DNA of 64,000 bases from Pseudomonadota bacterium (GCA_043821645.1 JBDRCO010000031.1:1-64000); one strand, 5' to 3'; counted from the stretch's first letter, positions 9,456 through 62,364 are shown. Notes: generated by a model from the sequence alone, not told the origin. Numbers and translations: made by a program.

Positions 9456-12400
9456 ATGGCACTGACCGTTCATCGCAGCAATCGCGCCGAGGTGCTGGCC
9501 GCGCACCTGGCCCACGAGATGGGTCAGCCCCTGCCCGGCGCCTGCACTCCCGAGCTGCTGGTGGTCGAGGGGCGAGGGCTGGAGCGCTGGCTGAGCCAGC
9601 AGGTGGCGCTGCGCAACGGCATCTGGGCCAACGTGCAGGTGCTGTTCCCCCGCGCCATGGTTGGCCGTGTGCTCGACCTGGTGCCCGCGCCCGACGACGA
9701 CCAGGTTTCGATCGCGCGCTTCGAGCCGGAACTCACACTGTGGGCTGTGGCCGACCTGCTGGTCGAGCTCCAGGACAGGCCCAGCTTCGCGCCACTGCGC
9801 AACTACCTGGCCGGGGCACTCCCCGGTTCGCCGCGCTGGCTGGAGCTGAGCGAGCGCCTGGCGCGCACCCTCGACGACTACGCGGTGTATCGACCGCGCT
9901 GGATACAGCACTGGGAACAGGGACAGCGCGTTCCCGACCATGCGGAGCAGCACGACTGGCAAGCCGAGCTGTGGCGCGCCCTGGTCGGCAGGCTGGGTCC
10001 GCACCATCCACCGCGGCGCGCGCGGGATTTCTTCTCGGCCCTGGCCACGGGCCGTCTCGATGTCGGCGCCCTGCCACCCCGGCTGCACCTTTTCGGCCTG
10101 ACCTCGCTGGCGCCGCTCTACCTGCGGGTGCTGGTGGCCCTGGCCGAGCACAGCACCGTGCATCTGTACCTGCTGAGTCCCTCCGAGGCGTACTGGAGCG
10201 ACATCCAGCGTCACCTGGGGTCGCACCTGCGCGAGTGGCGCGAGGGTGCTGCCGAGCTCGACCTGCACTACACCCTGGGTCACCCCTTGCTGGCCTCCCT
10301 GGGGCGGCAGGGTCGCGACATGCAGCGCCTGCTCGAAGCCCTGCCCGAGGCGGATGAGCTGGACGACTACCGCGCACCTGCGCCCTACCTCAGCAGTGGG
10401 CAGGACGGGGATGCTGGAGCCACGGAGGATTCCGCTGCGCCGCCCACGACCATGCTGCAGGTTGTGCAAGAGGACATGCGGCGCTTGCAGCTGCGTGCGG
10501 CTGCCGGGGCCGTGTCCGCAAGCGAGCAGCGCGTGGATCCACGTCCCCTGTTGCCCGGGGACCGCAGCATCACCATCCATTGCTGTCACAGCGCGCTGCG
10601 CGAGATCGAGGTGCTGCGCGACCAGCTGCTGGATCTGTTCGAGCATGACGACGCGCTGGTGCCGGCGGACATCGCGGTGCTCACCCCTGACATCGACGCC
10701 TACGCCCCGGCCATTGATGCGGTGTTCGGCGCGCCCGAGCTGGCGCGGCGACTGCGCTACACCGTGGCCGATCGCAGCGCTCGACACAGCCTCGATCTGG
10801 TCGACGGCCTGCTGCGGCTGATCGAACTCGGGCGAGGCCGCTTTGATGCGCCTGCCGTGTTCGACCTGCTGGCCAACCCGTCGCTGCGACGACGTCATGG
10901 AGTGCAGCCCGACGAGGTCGCGCGCATCGAGGGTTGGATCCGCGAGTCAGGAATTCGCTGGGGCATCGACGCCGAGCACCGGCGCAGCCTGGGCCACCCG
11001 GCGCTCGACGACAACACCTGGCGTGCGGGTCTGGACCGGTTGCTCCTGGGCTACGCCATGCCTGGCGAGGGTCGGGCTCTGTTTCAGGGGGTCCTTCCCT
11101 TCGACGACGTCGAGGGCAGTGACGCCGAGACCCTGGGCAAGTTCCTGGGCCTGTGGCAGCGCCTGCTCGCCTGGCACCGCCAGCTCTCCACCGCGCGTCC
11201 CGTGGCGCAGTGGGCAGCGCTCCTCAGCGGGGCGCTGGACGACTTCTTTGCCGTGGGCGACGAGCATGAGGCCGAGGCTGATCTGATACGCCATACCCTC
11301 GACGAGCTGGCGCAAAGGGCCGGGCAAGCGGGCTATGGACGCGAGGTCGAGCTCGAGGCCATCACCACCTTGCTCGAGCCGCTGGTCGAGCGCGGCCGGG
11401 TTGCCCAGGGTTTCTTGCGCGGTGCCATCACATTCTGTGGCACCGTGCCCATGCGCGCCATTCCCTTCAAGGTGCTGGCCCTGGTCGGCATGAACGACGA
11501 CAGCTTCCCCCGCCAGGACCGGCGGCCCGGCTTCGACCTGATGGCAAAGAAGCCCTTGCCTGGCGATCGCAGTCGGCGCGAGGACGACCGCTACCTGTTC
11601 CTCGAGGCCCTGCTGTCGGCGCGGCAATGGCTGATTCTCACCTACACCGGCCGCAGCGTGGCCGACAATGCAACGCGTCCGCCCTCGGTGGTGGTGAGCG
11701 AGCTGCTCGACGTGCTGTGCGACAGCTTTCGATTGCCCGACCTGAGCCACGAGGGTCAGGCTGTGGCTGCAGGCAGCCTGCGCATGAAGAACGCGCTGCG
11801 GCAGGTCCTGGTGCAGGAGCATGCCCTGCAACCCTTCAGTCCCCGCAACTTCGTCATGGCACCCGCGAGCGACGATCCGCGGCAGCACGCGGCGGACCAC
11901 ACCCCGAGGAGCCACGATGCGGCGGCGTGTCGGGGGGCCCGAGCCCTGCAGCAGCAGGCGGTGCCACGATCTGCCTTCGTGGATTCCCCGCTCCCTGCGC
12001 TGGACCTTGGCGAGCTGTCCCTCGACGAGCTGGCGCGCTTCTGCCGCGATCCCCTGGCCTGGTTCTTTACCCGCCGCCTGGGTCTGGAGCTGTCGGACCG
12101 GCAGGACAGCCTGGAGCCAGACGAGCCGCTCGACCTCGCGGGATTGTCTCGCTGGCAGGTGGGCTCGCAACTGCTCGCGCAGGCCCTCGAGGGTCAAGAC
12201 CTCGAGCTGTCCCGGCGGGTGCAGCGCGCGGCGGGCCAGCTCCCCCTGGGTGTGGTGGGAGACTGCGCGCTCGACGAGGTCGAGGCACAGGTTCGCGATC
12301 TGGTCCGTGCGGCGCGCCCGCTGTTGCAGGGTGCGCACCGTGACGTCGAGGTGGACCTTGCACTGGGTGCGACGCGCCTGACCGGCACGCTGCGGCAGGT

Positions 12401-55559: not shown

Positions 55560-56627
55560 CTAGCGGATCTCCAGGTGCAGATGATCGGCGTGAGCCTCGT
55601 TGCTGGCGGGGGTCAGCACCACGTCGAACAATCTGGCTTCCCGGATCCGCTGCACCAGCTGTCGCAAGAAGGCCTGGCGTTCTGCGGTGCCTGTCCAGTC
55701 GCGCTGCACCTCGATCGCCGCACCCTCGCTGCGCTCGAAGCCCACCACATCGATGGCCAGACCACGGCCGTGGCCGCTGAGGGAACGCGTGCCCGCGATG
55801 CTGCGGCAGTTGAAGGTGCCCACGTGTTGCACCTCGACCACGCCGGCCTCGGCCAGCAGCGCCGCCAGCCTGTCGAGCACAGGAGCAAAGCGGCAGGCGA
55901 CCAGCAAATGTTCGGCAAAACGTTGCCCGGCCTCGCGAAAGTCCACACCGTGCAGGGGGCTCGCCAGCAGCACAGGGGTATCGACCTGGCAATGCGTGCT
56001 GATGGGCAGCGGATCCCCCTCCCGGGCCGCCCTCGCCAGCGAGTCCTCCAGGTCGGGCCGGCTGTACTGCAGGCCCATCCTGTCCAGCTCCTGCGTGCAC
56101 TCGGTGGCGGGAGGCTGCGTGCCGAGGTCTGGCAAGCACACCAGGCGGGTCAGGTTGTCGCGCAGCCTGAGCACCGTGGCGCAGGCATAGCCGGGCCGGC
56201 AGCCACTGGTGGTGAGGTGCAGGTTGCAGCGCGCCACGCACACGCCGTGCTGTGAGAAGCTGGGGTCTTCCATGCAGAAGGTCTGTGAGTACAGATCCCC
56301 CACACGGTCCGGACAGGTGTGCTGGCAGGGCAGGGTGCAATGTCCTCCCGGAAACCCCTCTTCGGGCAGCAGGCAAAAGCCGCCTTCGAAGATGCAGTCA
56401 GCATCATGCTGGCAGGGGGAGCCCACCCAGCCCGGATTGAAGCTCAGATCCGCAGCCGCGGGACCCAGGTCTGCCACCGTGGCATCTTCAGGCGTGGCCA
56501 CGGCAGCATCGGGCTGGCTGGCGAGATGGGCTTGCTGTCCGGCCGACGAGGCCCAGAGCGCAAAGGCCCCAAGCGCGATCAGCACGGGGACAAGGGTCAC
56601 TGCCGTGAGTCGCGGCCTCGCTTCCAT
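55560..56627 (-). CDS. Extensin-like C-terminal (M15/LAS peptidase-like) protein with N-terminal anchor and Cys-rich domain
   Basis: GTFNCR...LSGHGRGLAIDV...TP-x-x-N-x-x-HADHLHL, plus an N-terminal TM and a Cys-rich PGGHCT-x-x-C module. Confidence 0.8.
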   Translation of the reverse strand: MEARPRLTAVTLVPVLIALGAFALWASSAGQQAHLASQPDAAVATPEDATVADLGPAAADLSFNPGWVGSPCQHDADCIFEGGFCLLPEEGFPGGHCTLPCQHTCPDRVGDLYSQTFCMEDPSFSQHGVCVARCNLHLTTSGCRPGYACATVLRLRDNLTRLVCLPDLGTQPPATECTQELDRMGLQYSRPDLEDSLARAAREGDPLPISTHCQVDTPVLLASPLHGVDFREAGQRFAEHLLVACRFAPVLDRLAALLAEAGVVEVQHVGTFNCRSIAGTRSLSGHGRGLAIDVVGFERSEGAAIEVQRDWTGTAERQAFLRQLVQRIREARLFDVVLTPASNEAHADHLHLEIR

Positions 56628-56685
56628 GCGCACCTCACATCCTGACTCGCCGAGTCTATGCCACAGGGTGAGGTCTGCGAGGGGC

Positions 56686-56711
56686 AAAAAAAAACCGCGG
56701 CGAACCGCGGT
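56686..56711 (-). terminator. Rho-independent terminator
   Basis: Minus strand ACCGCGG-TTCG-CCGCGGT running into a T9 tract. Confidence 0.88.
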
Positions 56712-56781
56712 GATAAAAAGAATAAAGGGGCAAGGAACGGCTGGACCGGGGGGGGGAGTCCGCACCGAACCGCTGCCCCAC
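56686..56781 (-). ncRNA. Candidate sigma54-dependent small RNA (about 96 nt) with C9 apical loop, Pxr-like context
   Basis: Bounded by a sigma54 promoter and an intrinsic terminator. Folds GGGGCA/TGCCCC, GCGGTT/AGCCGT, GGACT/GGTCC around CCCCCCCCC. Confidence 0.75.
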
Positions 56782-56792
56782 CCCACCTAAGA

Positions 56793-56807
56793 GCAGTATC
56801 CATGCCA
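56793..56807 (-). promoter_or_regulatory. sigma54 -24/-12 promoter
   Basis: Minus strand TGGCATGGATACTGC with exact GG-N10-GC spacing. It predicts +1 near 56781. Confidence 0.78.
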
Positions 56808-56899
56808 GGACGATGGAATAAAAAAAATGCTTATTATTCAATAGCCATTCAGAATCGACGGCAGCTGGGCTGCGGTATAGTTGTGGCGGATACACCACT

Positions 56900-56920
56900 G
56901 TTTCTGATGTGATCAGTAAC
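56900..56920. promoter_or_regulatory. Candidate enhancer (UAS) palindrome
   Basis: GTTTCTGAT-GTG-ATCAGTAAC has 8/9 arm symmetry and lies about 120-140 nt upstream of the predicted +1. Confidence 0.45.
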
Positions 56921-57000
56921 TATTTGTAATCGCTAATAAATAAGTATGTCGTAAATACCACGCAAAGAGGCAAGTTTACCTCATTTGATAACACTATGTA

Positions 57001-57486
57001 TTATTTGGATAAATCGATGAGATTGCGAATGCTTGCGCTCAGATCGTCCGGTGTTGCCGAGTCCGCCACCCAGGCCACGCGTTCGTCACCCCGTGCCACA
57101 GTCGTCCATCGGTCAAGTTCCCTTGAAAAATCATAGGAGATCAGGATGGGCACCGCCACCAGGCCCGCCTGCCGGATGGCGCGGTAAATATACAGGCCCT
57201 GATTTTTTTCTAAAAAAGACCATGCTTCATCAAGTGTTGCAGCATATCCATCAAGAACCTCTTGCGGGTCTCCCAGCAGCAGTTGACGAGCTGTTCGGTC
57301 AAAGCGCATGTCCAGAAAGACCAGCTGGGTAGGAGGTTTTAACTGCAGTATCCTCAAGGCCGTTGCTCCATCGTGGGCCTGTTGGATCTGCAACCCAGGT
57401 AAAAAAGCCACGAAGTTCTCGAAGTACTCATTTCCATCTTCGACGATCAGTAAACTGGCGTTGAGTTCGTTTTTTTGGGGTATCAT
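57001..57486 (-). CDS. Stand-alone atypical receiver (REC) protein
   Basis: LLIVED, AHDGATAL, VFLDMRFD, internal insertion, VPILIS. No obvious conserved Lys-Pro. Confidence 0.8.
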   Translation of the reverse strand: MIPQKNELNASLLIVEDGNEYFENFVAFLPGLQIQQAHDGATALRILQLKPPTQLVFLDMRFDRTARQLLLGDPQEVLDGYAATLDEAWSFLEKNQGLYIYRAIRQAGLVAVPILISYDFSRELDRWTTVARGDERVAWVADSATPDDLSASIRNLIDLSK

Positions 57487-57498
57487 CTTGGGGTGTAT

Positions 57499-60336
57499 TT
57501 AACTCGCTACGTAGGGTAAAAAAACCACCACTTCCTTTTCCCAGGCTGCTGTGGACCGACGTACTTTCATGCTGCCCCCACACCTCTGCAGCGTTTCCAG
57601 GACCAGACCCAGGCCCCGATCAGGGGGCCTCTGTCTGACATCATCCATGGACAAGGTGGAGCTGGCCAGGTCCCCGACGGCCAGGGCCAGGCGCACGTGA
57701 CCGGTGACGGGGTGGGTCTCGAGTGTCAGGTGGAGCCCAATTTTGAGTGGAAGTTTGGCTTCAGCTATTTCTGCCAACGCTGCATTTCTAAATAGATTAT
57801 TCAAAATCAGTTGTAGTGATTCTGGGGCCAGGCTCAGGTGCAGGGGCCACTCCAGGGTGGAACTCAACTGCAAGGCCTCGGCAGGTGTTTGCGCCAGCCC
57901 CGGTTCGCGCAGGGTGGCCTCGAAAGTCCTGACAAACCAGCTGGCATCCAGGGGCGCGCTGCGAATCTGCTCGATCAGCTCCTGCATGCGCAGGTAGGCG
58001 TCCGTGTTCAACGCAGCCGAGGCGCGCTCGAGTGCCTGGCACACCCGAGTACGGGTCCTGGGGTGCTCGAGCCTGGCCTCGACGATCTGGTCTTGAATGC
58101 CGGCGAGGATTGAAAAGCCTTTGAATATTGGCGCAATGGAATCATCTTTGAAGCGCACGTTGAGGCGTGACCCGGCACCTCGTGCGAGTTCTTCGAGCTG
58201 CAGCACATGGTGCCGGAAACGGCCAGAGGGGCTGTCCTCGCCACCCTGGGCGAGCTGGCGGACCCGCTGCAACTGGGCCTCGGTGGCCTGCCCGGCGCGC
58301 AAGGATTCGGCCACACCCTGCAGGATCATGGTGTTGTGCTTGAGCACCTCGTGGTGGATGGAGGACAGCAGGCGCTTCACCTCCGCGCTGCTGTCGGGGT
58401 AGCGCAGCACGAAGCGCTGCAGATCCAGGCCGCCGAAGCGATACCGCAGCAGCCAGGCCAGGGCACTTGCCACGCCCAGAACCAGCAGCAGCGGGAGCAG
58501 CGCGCTGGCCCAGGCGGCCCGGGTCAAGGCCCCCTGCAGCTCTGCACGACGCTCGAGCAAGGCGCTGCCCGCAGGCAAGGGGTCCAGCACGTCCAGCTCG
58601 ACAAGGCTGCGCAGCAGGTCGGGCAGCAGGCTCCAGGACAACCAGGCCGGGCCGTGGCGGGCTCGTGCCAGGTGCAGCTCCCCCAGGTAGAGCGCGGCCT
58701 CGGCGTCGCCCAGAGCCAGGCCTTGGTCCAGAGCGGCCTGGGCAGCGGGCAGTTGGCCCTGCTCGAACAGGATGCTGCCGAGCTGGGTATGGACATCGGC
58801 CTGCCCGGGATCCAGGCGCAGGGAATCCGCCAGGGCCAGGGCTGCCTCATCCAGCTGTCCGGCAGCGTGCAGGATTCGGCCCTCGAGGGCGCGCAGGCGG
58901 GCATCCGGGAGGTCCGCACCCAGGTGGCGGAGGGTCGCCAGGGCAGCGGCCGTTTCGCCCCTGGCAAGCAGCGCGCGGGCTCGGTTGAGGCCCTGCAAAC
59001 CGCCCTGCCGAAAGCTGCCTTCAGATCCCAGTGCTGAGGTGATTTCTAATGTTGATGAAAGGAGTTCCCCTTCTTTGCTCAAGCTCTTGACGAGGTTTGA
59101 TTGCAGGGCCTGGGCCTGGGTTCGGCCAGGCTCGGGGGGTTGGGCTGCGAGGTACTCCTGTACCAGCTGCAGGGCGCGCGGCAACTGCCCGCTGCGCCTG
59201 AGAGATTGAGCCAGCTTGAGCTTGAGCTCTATCCAGTCGGGGCGCAGTTGCAGGGCGCGGCCAATGAGGGCGATGGCCTCCTGCACCCTGTTGTCGTCCA
59301 CGTGTTCGAGGTAGAGCTCGCCCAGCCGGGCGTGCAGGTCGGCGCTCGACTGGTCGAACACCAGGCCCCGCAAGTACTCGAGCTCGGCACGCTGCCTGTC
59401 CCCCTGAACCCGCCAGGCGTCACCCAGCAGCAAGCGGGCCTCGCTGTAGCCCGGCGCCTGGGCCAGGGCCTGCTCCAGCAGCGCGACGGCCTCGCGGGGG
59501 CGTCGGCGCTCGACCAGGGTACGGGCGCGCTCGAGCAGCAAGGCCGCCTCGTCGCCCGGGGCACTGCTGCCCGCGCTCCAGCCGAAGCGACGGGCCTGCA
59601 GCTCCACCTCGACGCGCCACATGCGATCGCGCGCGGCGTCGCCAAAGGGGCCGTCGGCGTCGACCCGGCTGTACCAGGACAGGGCCTCATCCAGGCTGTC
59701 GTGGTCGCGGAACAGGTCGCCCAGCTCGAGCACCAGGGTCTCGTCGTCCACGGTCAGGGCCAGTGCCTCGCGGTAGAACTGCACCGCCTGCTCGAAGCGC
59801 TCGAGGCGCGAGGCCAGCCGCGCCTGGTGCCGGATCAGATCCGGGTCGTTGGCCTGGGCTGTCCGCAGGGCCGCGAGACGGCCCGCCAGGTCCTCGAGCT
59901 GCACCACATCCACATCCTCGCGCAGCACCTGGTCGACCACGGCCAGCACCACGTCGACGCGGTCGGGGGCCAGCAGCATGGCCTGCTGGAGCTGGGCCCA
60001 GGCCTCGGCGCCGTGGCCCAGGCGGACCTGCAGGCGACCCAGCTCGAGCACCACGTCCACCGCCTGTGGGGCCATCTCCTGGGCCTCGGTCAGCAGCTCC
60101 AGCGCGGACAGCAACTGGCCCTGCACGATCTCCTCGCGGGCCAGCCGCAGGCTCTCCTCGGCCTGCTTGAGCAGGATGTCGTCGAGCAGCTGCCGCACCT
60201 TGCTGAGGTCCTTGAGGCTGGACCCTGCCTCGCTGGATCCGCCATCCACGGGCTCGTCTGGCGACCGCGCCCGGGCCGGGGCGGCGAGCAGGCAGACCAG
60301 CACGAGCAGCGCGCTCGCTGTGGGCAGGCGTGTCAC
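57499..60336 (-). CDS. TPR-repeat membrane sensor histidine kinase-like protein
   Basis: Signal peptide, many TPRs, a TM helix, H-box-like IHHEVLKHN, N-box ILNNLFRNA, degenerate G1 (VGDLAS), G2 RGLGL. GTGA overlap with the upstream gene. Confidence 0.78.
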   Translation of the reverse strand: MTRLPTASALLVLVCLLAAPARARSPDEPVDGGSSEAGSSLKDLSKVRQLLDDILLKQAEESLRLAREEIVQGQLLSALELLTEAQEMAPQAVDVVLELGRLQVRLGHGAEAWAQLQQAMLLAPDRVDVVLAVVDQVLREDVDVVQLEDLAGRLAALRTAQANDPDLIRHQARLASRLERFEQAVQFYREALALTVDDETLVLELGDLFRDHDSLDEALSWYSRVDADGPFGDAARDRMWRVEVELQARRFGWSAGSSAPGDEAALLLERARTLVERRRPREAVALLEQALAQAPGYSEARLLLGDAWRVQGDRQRAELEYLRGLVFDQSSADLHARLGELYLEHVDDNRVQEAIALIGRALQLRPDWIELKLKLAQSLRRSGQLPRALQLVQEYLAAQPPEPGRTQAQALQSNLVKSLSKEGELLSSTLEITSALGSEGSFRQGGLQGLNRARALLARGETAAALATLRHLGADLPDARLRALEGRILHAAGQLDEAALALADSLRLDPGQADVHTQLGSILFEQGQLPAAQAALDQGLALGDAEAALYLGELHLARARHGPAWLSWSLLPDLLRSLVELDVLDPLPAGSALLERRAELQGALTRAAWASALLPLLLVLGVASALAWLLRYRFGGLDLQRFVLRYPDSSAEVKRLLSSIHHEVLKHNTMILQGVAESLRAGQATEAQLQRVRQLAQGGEDSPSGRFRHHVLQLEELARGAGSRLNVRFKDDSIAPIFKGFSILAGIQDQIVEARLEHPRTRTRVCQALERASAALNTDAYLRMQELIEQIRSAPLDASWFVRTFEATLREPGLAQTPAEALQLSSTLEWPLHLSLAPESLQLILNNLFRNAALAEIAEAKLPLKIGLHLTLETHPVTGHVRLALAVGDLASSTLSMDDVRQRPPDRGLGLVLETLQRCGGSMKVRRSTAAWEKEVVVFLPYVAS

Positions 60337-61985
60337 TCGCCGCGCAGCTCCCTGACCTTGAGGCCGACCTGGTTGAGGCGCAGGCGCACCGCCCGCGCTC
60401 TGTCGGCGCTGCCCAGCAGCACCTCGGCCATGGCCGCGAAGTCGCCCCGGCAAGTCCGGAACAGCTGGCTCAGGTACTGCCGCTCGACGTCGTTGGCCAC
60501 GGCGTTGAGGGTGCGCCCGGGTTGCAGCAGGACGGTGTAGCCCTCGCTCCGAGGGGCCCCCGGCGGTGCTGCGGGTGGGGTGCGCACGGCGCTGCGCAAC
60601 AGCTCGCCGACCAGGCCGGTGTCGACCTGCAAGCGGCGCGAGCGCAGGGGCTGGCCGCTGCGCAGCAGGTCCACGGCTCCAACCAGGGTGAAGCTCACCA
60701 TGCTGTGCAGGACCATCGCCAGCTCGCGCATGTTCCCGGGCCAGGCATGGCGCCGCAGCTGCGACCACACCGGATCCGGCAGTGACAGCACCAGATCCTC
60801 GTCGGAACTGGCCCGGCCGCCCCCACTGCGGCCGAGCTGTGCGCGCAGCGGCGTCGTGGCAGCCAGGCCTGCGGCGCGGGCGATCTCGGCCTTGAGCGGC
60901 GCGTGGTCCGGGTGCTCACCGGCGCGGGCGACCAGGGTGCTGGCAAGGGCTGGAAGGTCGGCAGGGCGCTCTCGCAGCGGCGGCACCAGCACGCGCGCCG
61001 CGGGCCCCAGGCGCATGTACAGGTCCTGGCGAAAGGTTCCGGCCTGCACCGCCAGCTCGAGGGGCTGGTTGCTGGCGGCCACCACCTTGACGTCGACCGC
61101 TTGCTCGGCAGTGGCGCCGAGGGGCCGCACGCGCCGCTCCTGCAGCACCACCAGCAGCTGCTTTTGCACCTCCAGCGGCACGTTCTGCACCTCGTCCAGG
61201 AACAGGGTGCCGCCGTGGGCGAGCTGGAAGGCGCCCTTGCGATCGCTCACCGCGCCGGTGTACGCGCCGCGCAGCGCTCCAAACAGGTGCGCCGGCACCA
61301 GGTCGCGGGGCACCGTGCTGAGGTCCAGGGTGACGAAGGGGCCGCGGCGAGTGCTCTGGCGATGCAGCACGCGCTCGGCCAGAAAGGATTTGCCGGTGCC
61401 TGTCTCACCCTCGAGCAGCACTGGCATGGAGCTGCGCGCCAGCACCGCCAGACGGCGCCGCACCGCATGCATGGCGCGGTCGCGGCCCCACAGCACCTCG
61501 CCGTCGTCGGCCTGCAGGGCGCGCTGTTCCAGCGCCTGGTGAATGCGGATGCGCAGGGTGTCCACGTCATCCGCGTCGAGCAGGTAGGTCATGGACTGCG
61601 AGGCCAGCTCGCCGCCTTCGTCGACCAGCGACAGATCCGCCTGGCTGGTGGCCAGCACCACGGGCAGGTCCGGGTGCAGGCGCCGGATCTCGCGCAGGAT
61701 GGCCACGCCCTGAAAGCGCCGGGTGCGACGGTCGCTGGCGCCCGGGGCCAGCGGTAGCAGCTGCGCGGCGTCGACATCGAAGCGCATGTCGAGCAGCACC
61801 ACGTCGACCTGGGCGGCGTGCTTGTTGAGGTAGCTCAGGGCCGCGGGCCCGCTGGCCAGGCGCGGTGGCTGGTCTGCTCCGGCGGGCTGCAACAGCTCGA
61901 GTTCGTCAAGCTGGTCCGCGACCACCTGGGCGTAGTCCAGCCCGTCGTCGATGACCAGGATCCTAGGACGGCTCGACTTGGCCAT
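60333..61985 (-). CDS. sigma54-dependent enhancer-binding response regulator (REC-AAA+)
   Basis: ILVIDD...LLDMRFD, GETGTGKS, GAYTGA, GTLFLDEV, FRQDLY-x-RL, WPGNMREL. GAGGAG RBS. Confidence 0.93.
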   Translation of the reverse strand: MAKSSRPRILVIDDGLDYAQVVADQLDELELLQPAGADQPPRLASGPAALSYLNKHAAQVDVVLLDMRFDVDAAQLLPLAPGASDRRTRRFQGVAILREIRRLHPDLPVVLATSQADLSLVDEGGELASQSMTYLLDADDVDTLRIRIHQALEQRALQADDGEVLWGRDRAMHAVRRRLAVLARSSMPVLLEGETGTGKSFLAERVLHRQSTRRGPFVTLDLSTVPRDLVPAHLFGALRGAYTGAVSDRKGAFQLAHGGTLFLDEVQNVPLEVQKQLLVVLQERRVRPLGATAEQAVDVKVVAASNQPLELAVQAGTFRQDLYMRLGPAARVLVPPLRERPADLPALASTLVARAGEHPDHAPLKAEIARAAGLAATTPLRAQLGRSGGGRASSDEDLVLSLPDPVWSQLRRHAWPGNMRELAMVLHSMVSFTLVGAVDLLRSGQPLRSRRLQVDTGLVGELLRSAVRTPPAAPPGAPRSEGYTVLLQPGRTLNAVANDVERQYLSQLFRTCRGDFAAMAEVLLGSADRARAVRLRLNQVGLKVRELRGE

Positions 61986-62364
61986 GTAACTCCTCGAGCA
62001 CCGCCTGGATGGCGGTGGACACGGCGCGCAGATCCCCCAGGGCGCGCGCGCGATCGAAGTCCGCGGCCTCGGCCCGGGCCACGTGCTCCCAGGCCAGGGC
62101 TCGCGCCACGGTGCGACACAGGTCCGGGTGGGCGGGAAGGTGCTCGAGCTGCCCAGCGGCCTCGTCGACAAAGGCCTGCCACAGCGCGCGCGCGGACTGC
62201 ACGCCTGAAGGTCCGCTGCGGGTTTGCAGCAGGGCGCGGCGCAGGGCCTGGTGCGCGAGCTCGGCGCTGGCATCCGCGGGCAAGAAGGTGACCGGCATGG
62301 CGAGGTGCTTGCCCAGGTCGTGCTTGAGGTCGAGCAACAGGTCCTCGAGTTCGGTCCTGGTCAT
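61963..62364 (-). CDS. Small helical protein with H-box-like motif (possible free phosphotransferase)
   Basis: LLLDLKHDLGKHL. Overlaps the start of the activator gene. Confidence 0.65.
   Translation of the reverse strand: MTRTELEDLLLDLKHDLGKHLAMPVTFLPADASAELAHQALRRALLQTRSGPSGVQSARALWQAFVDEAAGQLEHLPAHPDLCRTVARALAWEHVARAEAADFDRARALGDLRAVSTAIQAVLEELHGQVEPS

Follow-up and report, generated by a model that had tools for sequence, protein, structure and literature searches.

Pxr is a small RNA (sRNA) whose gene lies downstream of that of a sigma-54 response regulator (nla19/pxrR) and apparently has a sigma-54 promoter; according to the available sections of the papers concerned, its RNA is predicted to have three stem-loops, the gene has tandem paralogues in Cystobacter, Pxr arose within the Cystobacterineae and its direct targets are still unclear (PMC5568312, PMC11928866, PMC8538405). 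According to the accessible part of another study, stem-loop 2 (SL2) is conserved, SL3 has an 8-bp core and a C-to-A change in the loop of SL1 abolishes Pxr function (PMC5684412), and Pxr synthesis requires PxrR, as stated in the available text of a further one (PMC10217877). Here, we analyse a unit located on the minus strand of a stretch of 64,000 nt from a Pseudomonadota bacterium (GCA_043821645.1 JBDRCO010000031.1:1-64000; this whole stretch is hereafter referred to as the window). The unit consists of a sigma-54-type promoter, a hairpin displaying a loop of nine cytosines (C9) and an intrinsic terminator. We consider it likely that it is a stand-alone sRNA gene of about 96 nt, driven by sigma-54 and with the C9 loop as its seed, and that it represents a deep branch of a group of Myxococcota sRNAs including Pxr. 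The window host belongs to an uncultured class of this phylum, different from that of the Pxr hosts.

Besides Pxr, the closest known systems are sRNAs that share either a sigma-54 promoter or C-rich loops with this unit. The Qrr1–5 genes of Vibrio and GlmY of the Enterobacteriaceae are sRNA genes read from sigma-54 promoters under the control of an enhancer-binding protein, and the Qrr genes are multi-copy siblings whose products depend on Hfq; unlike the window RNA, they have no poly-C loop, and they are unrelated to it in sequence and structure. We know of no sigma-54 control of 6C, an sRNA of Actinobacteria that presumably has an Rfam entry; 6C comes from another phylum and has no sequence relation to the window RNA, as no Rfam match was obtained in the window or in the loci from its class. 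Like the window RNA, 6C belongs to a high-GC host and has C-rich hairpin loops, which, in the available text, pair with G-rich mRNA sites independently of an RNA chaperone (PMC6486639). Similarly, the apical C-rich loops of sX13 of Xanthomonas target G-rich ribosome-binding-site motifs and do not need Hfq for this, according to the accessible sections of its description (PMC3771888). This RNA differs from that of the window in having three loops with 4C motifs rather than a C9 loop, a gammaproteobacterial host and another type of promoter. Both 6C and sX13 are thus precedents for the Hfq-free pairing of C-loops with G-tracts proposed below.

All the elements of the unit lie in a gap of 375 nt between a 161-aa open reading frame (ORF; stop at 57001) and a gene for a secreted protein (ATG at 56627). 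The sigma-54-type promoter (TGGCATGGATACTGCT, 56792..56807, minus strand, as are all features described for the window) reads TGGCAT-N6-TGCT, with a GG-N10-GC geometry of exact spacing, from which transcription is predicted to start at 56781, roughly 12 nt beyond the −12 GC. A long hairpin follows (56727..56779), with the C9 run (56756–56748) in its apical loop, closed by GGACU/GGUCC, and then a U-rich linker (56712..56726), single-stranded judging from the sequence and the fold, and an intrinsic terminator (56686..56711) composed of a 7-bp GC stem (56711–56694), a UUCG loop and a U9 run. This last was the sole terminator-like site in a scan of positions 56400–57200. The predicted RNA folds as one long hairpin plus the short terminator (−44.5 kcal/mol, z = −2.63, 5 of 200 shuffles being equally good). 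An initial annotation, made by a model from the DNA alone, had proposed a GG-N10-GC promoter, found here at 56807–56792 with the same element in 10 of the 11 family loci described below, a C9-loop hairpin, a U-rich linker and a UUCG hairpin followed by U9, all of which are present in the sequence and agree with the fold and the terminator scan. It had also seen no credible ORF inside the unit, and we concur: the mechanical ORFs that overlap it are not convincing, and the downstream gene is provided with a separate Shine-Dalgarno sequence and an ATG at 56627. The promoter motif alone would be within chance expectation (2 matches in the window versus 1.09 expected), and the finding rises above chance because promoter, hairpin and terminator recur together in relatives. 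With Rfam, the whole window yielded nothing at the gathering score, and the unit region, searched at E ≤ 10, only terminator-driven noise.

The promoter is preceded by an AT-rich spacer (56808..56899) with a GC content of about 40%, against 67% for the genome. The spacer had been annotated correctly, but the A8 tract assigned to its minus strand is in fact T8 (56827–56820), corresponding to A8 on the plus strand. The promoters of two other copies, in G001 and at G000:C87 (see below), are likewise preceded by AT-rich stretches. The palindrome reported at 56900..56920, some 100 nt before the −24 element, is present and imperfect, with 9-nt arms complementary at 8 of 9 positions and a 3-nt spacer; it lies below the size detected by the repeat search at seed 6, which did not report it, and the sequences preceding the paralogous loci showed no comparable palindrome. 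It is a candidate binding site for an enhancer-binding protein.

We sampled four genomes of the uncultured class (G000–G003), of which G000 is the window genome, G001 the only other genome of the same family and G003 a class relative, together with a metagenome contig (L029). The first relatives were the hairpin in G001 and a weak second copy in G000, both found by BLAST, and the copy on L029, found by a pattern scan that also re-found the one in G001. A covariance model of the hairpin (R1; nine sequences, window copy included) identified 11 hairpin-1 loci at E ≤ 5e-6 (three in G000, one in G001, one in G002, five in G003 and one on L029), the window hairpin scoring 68.9 bits. All four class genomes thus had R1 matches, and a search over 151 genomes of the phylum returned only these four and one coding false positive. 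Two of the loci, G002:C83 (43.2 bits) and G000:C68 (27.9 bits), were absent from the model and have the same anatomy. In 10 of the 11 loci, the hairpin is preceded by the GG-N10-GC element at a distance of 11–17 nt, the exception being G002:C83, which has GT at −12. The window copy has all the features of the family, namely a GGACU-[N]C8-GGUCC apex, a sigma-54 promoter 11–17 nt upstream and a U-run terminator.

In G001 and on L029, TGGCAY-N5-ATGCA is followed by the C9 hairpin and a U-run and then by a second, C8-loop hairpin and U7–8; these RNAs fold strongly (−75.1 kcal/mol, z = −6.4). The two RNA units differ at only 6 of 145 columns (manual count), against a mean identity of 78% over the whole alignment; apart from the promoter hexamers, the flanks are divergent, as is the downstream ORF. 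A further two-hairpin copy, with the promoter TGGCACGTACCCTGCT, was found at G000:C87:224611-224790 by listing every C≥8 run in G000. Three of the five copies in G003 are arranged in tandem at G003:C497, about 400 nt apart, each with its own TGGCAC-N5-CTGCT promoter and a hairpin followed by U8.

The stems of hairpin 1 covary. In an alignment of 12 sequences and 14 pairs, which was fitted to model R1 and consists of related sequences, 90.2% of the cells were paired, versus 76.9% in shuffles (0 of 500 reaching the observed value), and 8 of the 14 pairs had changed on both sides (0 of 500 shuffles); slid registers gave only 27–59% pairing. The loop is constant at 9 nt, the sole variable position being its first base (C, U or A). 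The promoter-hairpin-terminator unit is conserved, with purifying selection acting on the RNA, and has an exposed 9-nt C-loop of invariant length. The initial annotation had made its proposal dependent on the conservation of promoter, stem-loop and terminator in relatives, and this was observed at 11 loci, with covarying stems and with the unit lying between differing genes and, in some genomes, in tandem copies. We conclude that the loci form a genuine sRNA family that had not been described before, a new variant of the Pxr kind.

Three other sequences were encountered during these searches. At G000:C127:25998-26076, a degenerate look-alike with the loop ACCUACCCC is 79% identical to the hairpin over 53 nt; a C-rich stretch poor in G comes next, and 190 nt downstream there is another sigma-54 activator gene, the product of which shares only AAA+ similarity with that encoded in the window. 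R1 gave the look-alike only 19.2 bits (E = 0.34), no convincing sigma-54 promoter was found there and its membership is uncertain. The sequence TTGTAATAGTAAGTGCCAG followed by C8 recurs at G000:C20:15226, C53:55727, C112:14290 and C126:4185 and is unrelated to the sRNA family; this repeat may be the end of a mobile element. Finally, a 196-nt contig from DNA run X2 (a biofilm metagenome from another study) matches the 45-nt core of the window hairpin (56727–56771) with one difference and then diverges, and it probably holds the sRNA copy of a relative.

There was no synteny between the window and the G001 and L029 loci, and the genes upstream vary by locus (a GNAT/FemAB-like gene, a ferredoxin gene and genes without a Pfam match). 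Convergent genes or further copies lie downstream at G000:C87, G003:C20 and the G003:C497 array, and, together with the differing neighbours, this arrangement fits stand-alone genes. However, the Extensin-like_C gene of the window is on the same strand and begins, with its own Shine-Dalgarno sequence, 60 nt past the U9 run, so read-through or a leader role is possible, and a gene also begins right after the terminator at G000:C68. We consider it unlikely that the unit is a cis-acting leader or attenuator, with the sigma-54 promoter serving the downstream secreted-protein gene and the hairpin and terminator forming a regulated stop in its 5' leader: the genes downstream differ between loci, with the convergent genes and additional copies mentioned above among them, the terminators are strong (U7–U9), the RNA unit is far more conserved than the sequence after it, and Pxr, the sole studied member of the design, works as an sRNA.

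A leader is also suggested by the two-hairpin relatives in G001, L029, G002 and G003:C148, all of which precede a gene for the same small Cys-rich lipoprotein (..VCH..GGTCAPPC..D..C....GRC), located at about 1600–1900 in L035 (G001:C133), at 12270–11990 (minus strand) on L029, in L037 (G002:C83) and in L033/L048 (G003:C148). In G001 and L029, this gene has only one candidate start, a GTG located within hairpin 2 (C8 loop); the gene in G002 has its own ATG, and, at G003:C148, the lipoprotein frame would join the hairpin-2 GTG only with C9, the observed run being C8. Given this lipoprotein gene and the gene 60 nt downstream in the window, a leader or dual role is possible for some copies.

The same frame could be taken to suggest phase variation at the DNA level, in which slippage of the C9/G9 tract would switch the promoter-proximal region or a small ORF, as homopolymers of 8–9 bases are slippage-prone. 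This seems very improbable, since all hairpin-1 loci have a 9-nt loop, which changes by substitution of the first base and not in length, and the tract always lies in the apical loop of a covarying stem. Moreover, a Logan contig (56709–58303) from DNA run X1 has the same G9/C9 run and no length variant. X1 is possibly the source sample and this contig is therefore not independent support. An assembly artefact, which the initial annotation had named as a possible refutation, is argued against by the C8–C9 loops present in all 11 family loci.

The published Pxr Northern probe, used as a pattern, matched 82 of 401 genomes from the phylum of the window host, all from family f11, which identifies this phylum as Myxococcota. 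The Pxr loci have a TGGCAY-N6-TGCT promoter, an SL1 apex of the form GGUU-C7-ACC and up to four tandem copies. The Rfam model RF01812 recovered true Pxr loci at 75–123 bits, but gave no match on the window at E ≤ 10, on seven class loci at E ≤ 1, or in the loci of other lineages at E ≤ 0.1, including families f15 and f30 of Pxr's own order. The Rfam check proposed by the initial annotation was thus effective for Pxr itself and returned nothing for the window, and, as the model matches no class locus, the window RNA is not Pxr in the strict sense. The two RNAs nevertheless share the phylum, the form of the sigma-54-type promoter, a poly-C loop in the first stem-loop (C7 in Pxr, C9 in the window) and an intrinsic terminator; in addition, both Pxr and the window family have tandem paralogues in some genomes and hosts with no identified Hfq. 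They differ in that Pxr has three stem-loops, whereas the window RNA has one long hairpin and a terminator. A gene for a REC-Sigma54_activat-HTH_8 (pxrR-like) protein lies immediately upstream of the Pxr and f15 loci, and the position of the activator is another difference: Pxr adjoins pxrR (REC-AAA+-HTH), whereas the activator gene of the window is 4.2 kb away and its product lacks REC.

One Pxr locus (L057) merits comment in its own right. Its RF01812 match starts at 1480, about 25 nt past the −12 GC of a sigma-54-type motif, rather than at the usual distance of 11–12 nt, and the conserved Pxr sequence between the promoter and the Rfam start (CCGGAGCAC..) is similar to the f30 RNAs at their 5' ends. 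Judging from these sequences, the primary Pxr transcript may be longer than annotated.

The design is not confined to Pxr and the class family. The pattern TGGCAYN6TGCW-N30-50-C7 was searched over 401 Myxococcota genomes, with the reversed pattern as a control, and matched 195 of them, versus about 11 for the control (manual table count; the tally includes the unpublished genome G195, on which nothing rests). Within Pxr's order (families f11, f15, f22, f26, f30 and f33–f36), the pattern was present in 86 of 121 genomes, against one control match. It was also found in the window's own class (f1, 1/1; f2, 1/2) and in families f4 (5/18), f6 (5/20), f13 (1/2), f14 (1/1) and f18 (1/11), and was absent from f10 (0/21), f12 (0/6), f24 (0/6), f8 (0/4), f19 (0/4) and f21 (0/4). 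When 27 representative loci of other lineages were folded, the C-run fell in an apical hairpin loop in 23 (visual reading), usually with a terminator, and many of them had in common an outer stem GAAGCG/CGCUUC (with GAGGCG/CGCCUC variants) and an apex GGU-C7-9-RCC. A small TPR gene precedes the sRNA at the f30 loci, and no activator was found beside it in two stretches examined from an ORF listing without a Pfam scan.

Several pattern matches were rejected as sRNAs. Those at L083, L085 and L086 fold without a C-loop hairpin, and those in G127 and at G002:C29 lie in coding regions. The match at G001:C366 (L105, 2903–2975) combines a perfect sigma-54-type promoter with a C10 run, located in the 5' untranslated region of a lipoprotein gene (GGAGG, then ATG), and has no C-loop hairpin; from this arrangement, it may be a sigma-54-dependent mRNA with a C-tract leader. 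A different situation was observed in four f26 genomes (G243, G404, G405 and G406), each with 8–12 matches (overlaps on one long C-run being counted separately) whose motifs are near-identical (GAAGCGCA...GAGAAGCUGGU-C7-10). The family appears to be strongly expanded in f26.

A covariance model built from families f30 and f15 only (R3) was used to compare these RNAs with Pxr and with the class family, with E-values that are rough because the models were briefly calibrated. On the Pxr loci, R3 gave 11 matches at E < 0.01, all to SL1 (best 23.2 bits). On the class loci, the top matches were hairpin 2 of five two-hairpin loci, at 17.7–21.5 bits (E = 0.0016–0.014), the sixth such locus (G002:C83) scoring 8.5 bits (E = 2.6), and the two-C-loop RNAs of family f4 scored 16–18 bits. 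Of 40 control sites taken at random from the C/G≥8 runs of the window genome, 39 scored 8 bits or less and one 13.0. The scores of hairpin 2 are well above those of the controls, and class hairpin 2 therefore resembles a Pxr-type SL1 beyond the effect of the C-run. The window hairpin itself was only marginal (12.7 bits, E = 0.24) and thus joins the wider group through its family and not through its own score. The initial annotation had suggested a distant homologue or an analogue of Pxr, and the data bear this out, since the Pxr loci share the promoter type and have a C7 loop, and R3 links Pxr to the class.

Some of these comparisons speak against a relationship with Pxr. R1 searched on 27 kb of Pxr loci gave a best match of 12.9 bits (E = 0.08, not significant), and a Pxr covariance model made here (R2), searched on 35 kb of class loci, gave 8–12 bits (E = 0.16–1.4), with no match for the window locus at E ≤ 10; these cross-searches placed the right sites near the top, yet without significance. 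The R3 loci were selected by C-runs, which R3 also rewards, and genome-wide E-values for the hairpin-2 scores would be near 1. Furthermore, whole-genome R3 searches of the four class genomes (150 first-look candidates scored per genome) gave background matches of 16–21 bits, and the family loci were not among the matches listed. The best of these matches in G003, at G003:C493:12058-12135 (21.1 bits), may be a further family member.

It is therefore possible, if doubtful, that this is a real sRNA family but an analogue of Pxr, sigma-54 control and the poly-C loop having been acquired independently and the phylum-wide pattern lumping unrelated RNAs together. Besides the non-significant R1 and R2 tests, this explanation would account for the failure of RF01812 to detect even f15 and f30 and for the similarity of the R3 scores of the window hairpin and the best C-run control, and C-rich loops have arisen independently in Actinobacteria and Xanthomonas, as far as the available sections of the two descriptions indicate (PMC6486639, PMC3771888). 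It fits less well with the frequency of the combined pattern, about 18 times that of the reversed control across one phylum, although sigma-54-dependent sRNAs are rare, or with the R3 scores of class hairpin 2 relative to 39 of the 40 matched controls. The two C-loop hairpins of f4, a family outside Pxr's order, with their R3 scores of 16–18 bits, the recurrence of the outer-stem motifs and of the GGU-C7-9-RCC apex, and tandem paralogy on both sides also point to a common origin. Most probably, sigma-54-dependent sRNAs with a poly-C loop form a group that extends across the Myxococcota and includes Pxr, and the class family is one of its deep branches.

For a sigma-54-driven sRNA of this kind, we envisage that an enhancer-binding protein would bind upstream of the AT-rich, bendable spacer and turn on sigma-54 RNA polymerase at TGGCAT-N6-TGCT, with transcription beginning near 56781 and ending at the GC hairpin and U9 run. 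The resulting RNA, essentially one long hairpin, would display nine unpaired cytosines as a seed for pairing with G-rich single-stranded stretches of mRNAs, the ribosome-binding sites and their vicinity being the most plausible locations, and this pairing would change the translation or stability of the mRNAs without Hfq. Such a model fits the loss of Pxr function following the C-to-A change in the loop, as reported in the available part of the corresponding study (PMC5684412).

The target searches count against this mechanism. In G000, G≥8 runs were only weakly enriched just upstream of long ORFs starting with ATG (10/182, versus 4/182 in the opposite orientation), the enrichment disappeared when GTG starts were added (21 versus 18), and the search for targets through G-runs before starts gave no convincing target set. 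No G≥6 run was found on the sense strand of the genes neighbouring the window sRNA. In addition, the single computed Pxr target site (pxrA) maps mainly to SL3 and not to the C-loop, according to the accessible text of its report (PMC11928866). As for expression, RNA run X9 yielded one contig, at 58089–58278 in the TPR gene, and X10 none; as contigs cannot show absence, we regard this result as neutral.

The absence of a convincing target set would also be expected if the RNA were made but acted as a decoy or sponge for a protein, such as a poly(C)-binding KH or cold-shock-type protein, with no base pairing. An invariant, near-pure-C loop of 9 nt on a rigid stem would be a good platform for a protein, and the many copies per genome would suit titration. 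We nevertheless regard a decoy as quite unlikely: the loci are not associated with any candidate protein partner, and the C-loop sRNAs that have been studied, 6C and sX13, act by pairing, according to the available sections (PMC6486639, PMC3771888). Pairing through the C9 loop remains our preferred mode of action.

The activator gene nearest to the unit (60333..62273), 4.2 kb upstream and separated from it by two genes, encodes a sigma-54 enhancer-binding protein that is a candidate activator of the sRNA; an AAA+ domain was found at residues 262–422, but no receiver domain. The placement next to an activator gene, which the initial annotation cited for Pxr, is thus seen only in part: a sigma-54 activator is nearby, but it is not adjacent and lacks the receiver domain. 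About 5% of sites have an activator within 5 kb by chance, so the proximity is not significant, and, to the detriment of the proposed pairing of activator and sRNA, the window copy is the only one of the three clear G000 copies with an activator within 60 kb. The window genome encodes sigma-54 (rpoN) and 39 sigma-54 activators (PF00158 genes), and Hfq was not found in this genome, which is 94.7% complete.

Between the activator gene and the sRNA lie a gene for a TPR-repeat protein (57499..60768, ORF as listed), whose overlap in this form with the end of the activator gene makes a later true start probable, and the 161-aa ORF (57001..57486), which sits between the TPR protein and the sRNA promoter. 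This ORF has a GC content of 51% and a GC3 of 0.55 in a genome of 67% GC and gave no Pfam match at E ≤ 0.001; by eye, its product looks like a stand-alone receiver domain (LLIVED ... FLDM). The gene on the other side of the unit (55560..56627), outside the RNA, encodes a secreted protein with an Extensin-like_C domain (PF06904, E = 4.2e-26).

In the literature searched, which excluded supplements and Chen et al. 2014, reportedly the founding paper on the origin of Pxr, no Pxr-like or sigma-54-dependent poly-C-loop sRNA was reported outside the Cystobacterineae. The arguments are evenly balanced as to whether Pxr is a specialised branch of an ancient, phylum-wide set of sigma-54-dependent poly-C-loop sRNAs, also present, frequently as multiple copies, in uncultured, probably non-fruiting lineages such as the class of the window host, with an ancestral job other than the gating of development; a candidate for this job would be sigma-54-signalled, Hfq-independent control of mRNAs with G-tract ribosome-binding sites. 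Pxr is the textbook sRNA controlling bacterial multicellularity. If the window family and the forms from other lineages are its relatives, then its origin would be pushed back almost to the root of the phylum, the obvious place to seek its missing targets would be the conserved poly-C loop, and the cultured non-Myxococcus carriers of the simpler, one-hairpin forms would become test beds. Regardless of Pxr, the uncultured class has a new, well-delimited sRNA family, which adds to the few sigma-54-dependent sRNAs known.

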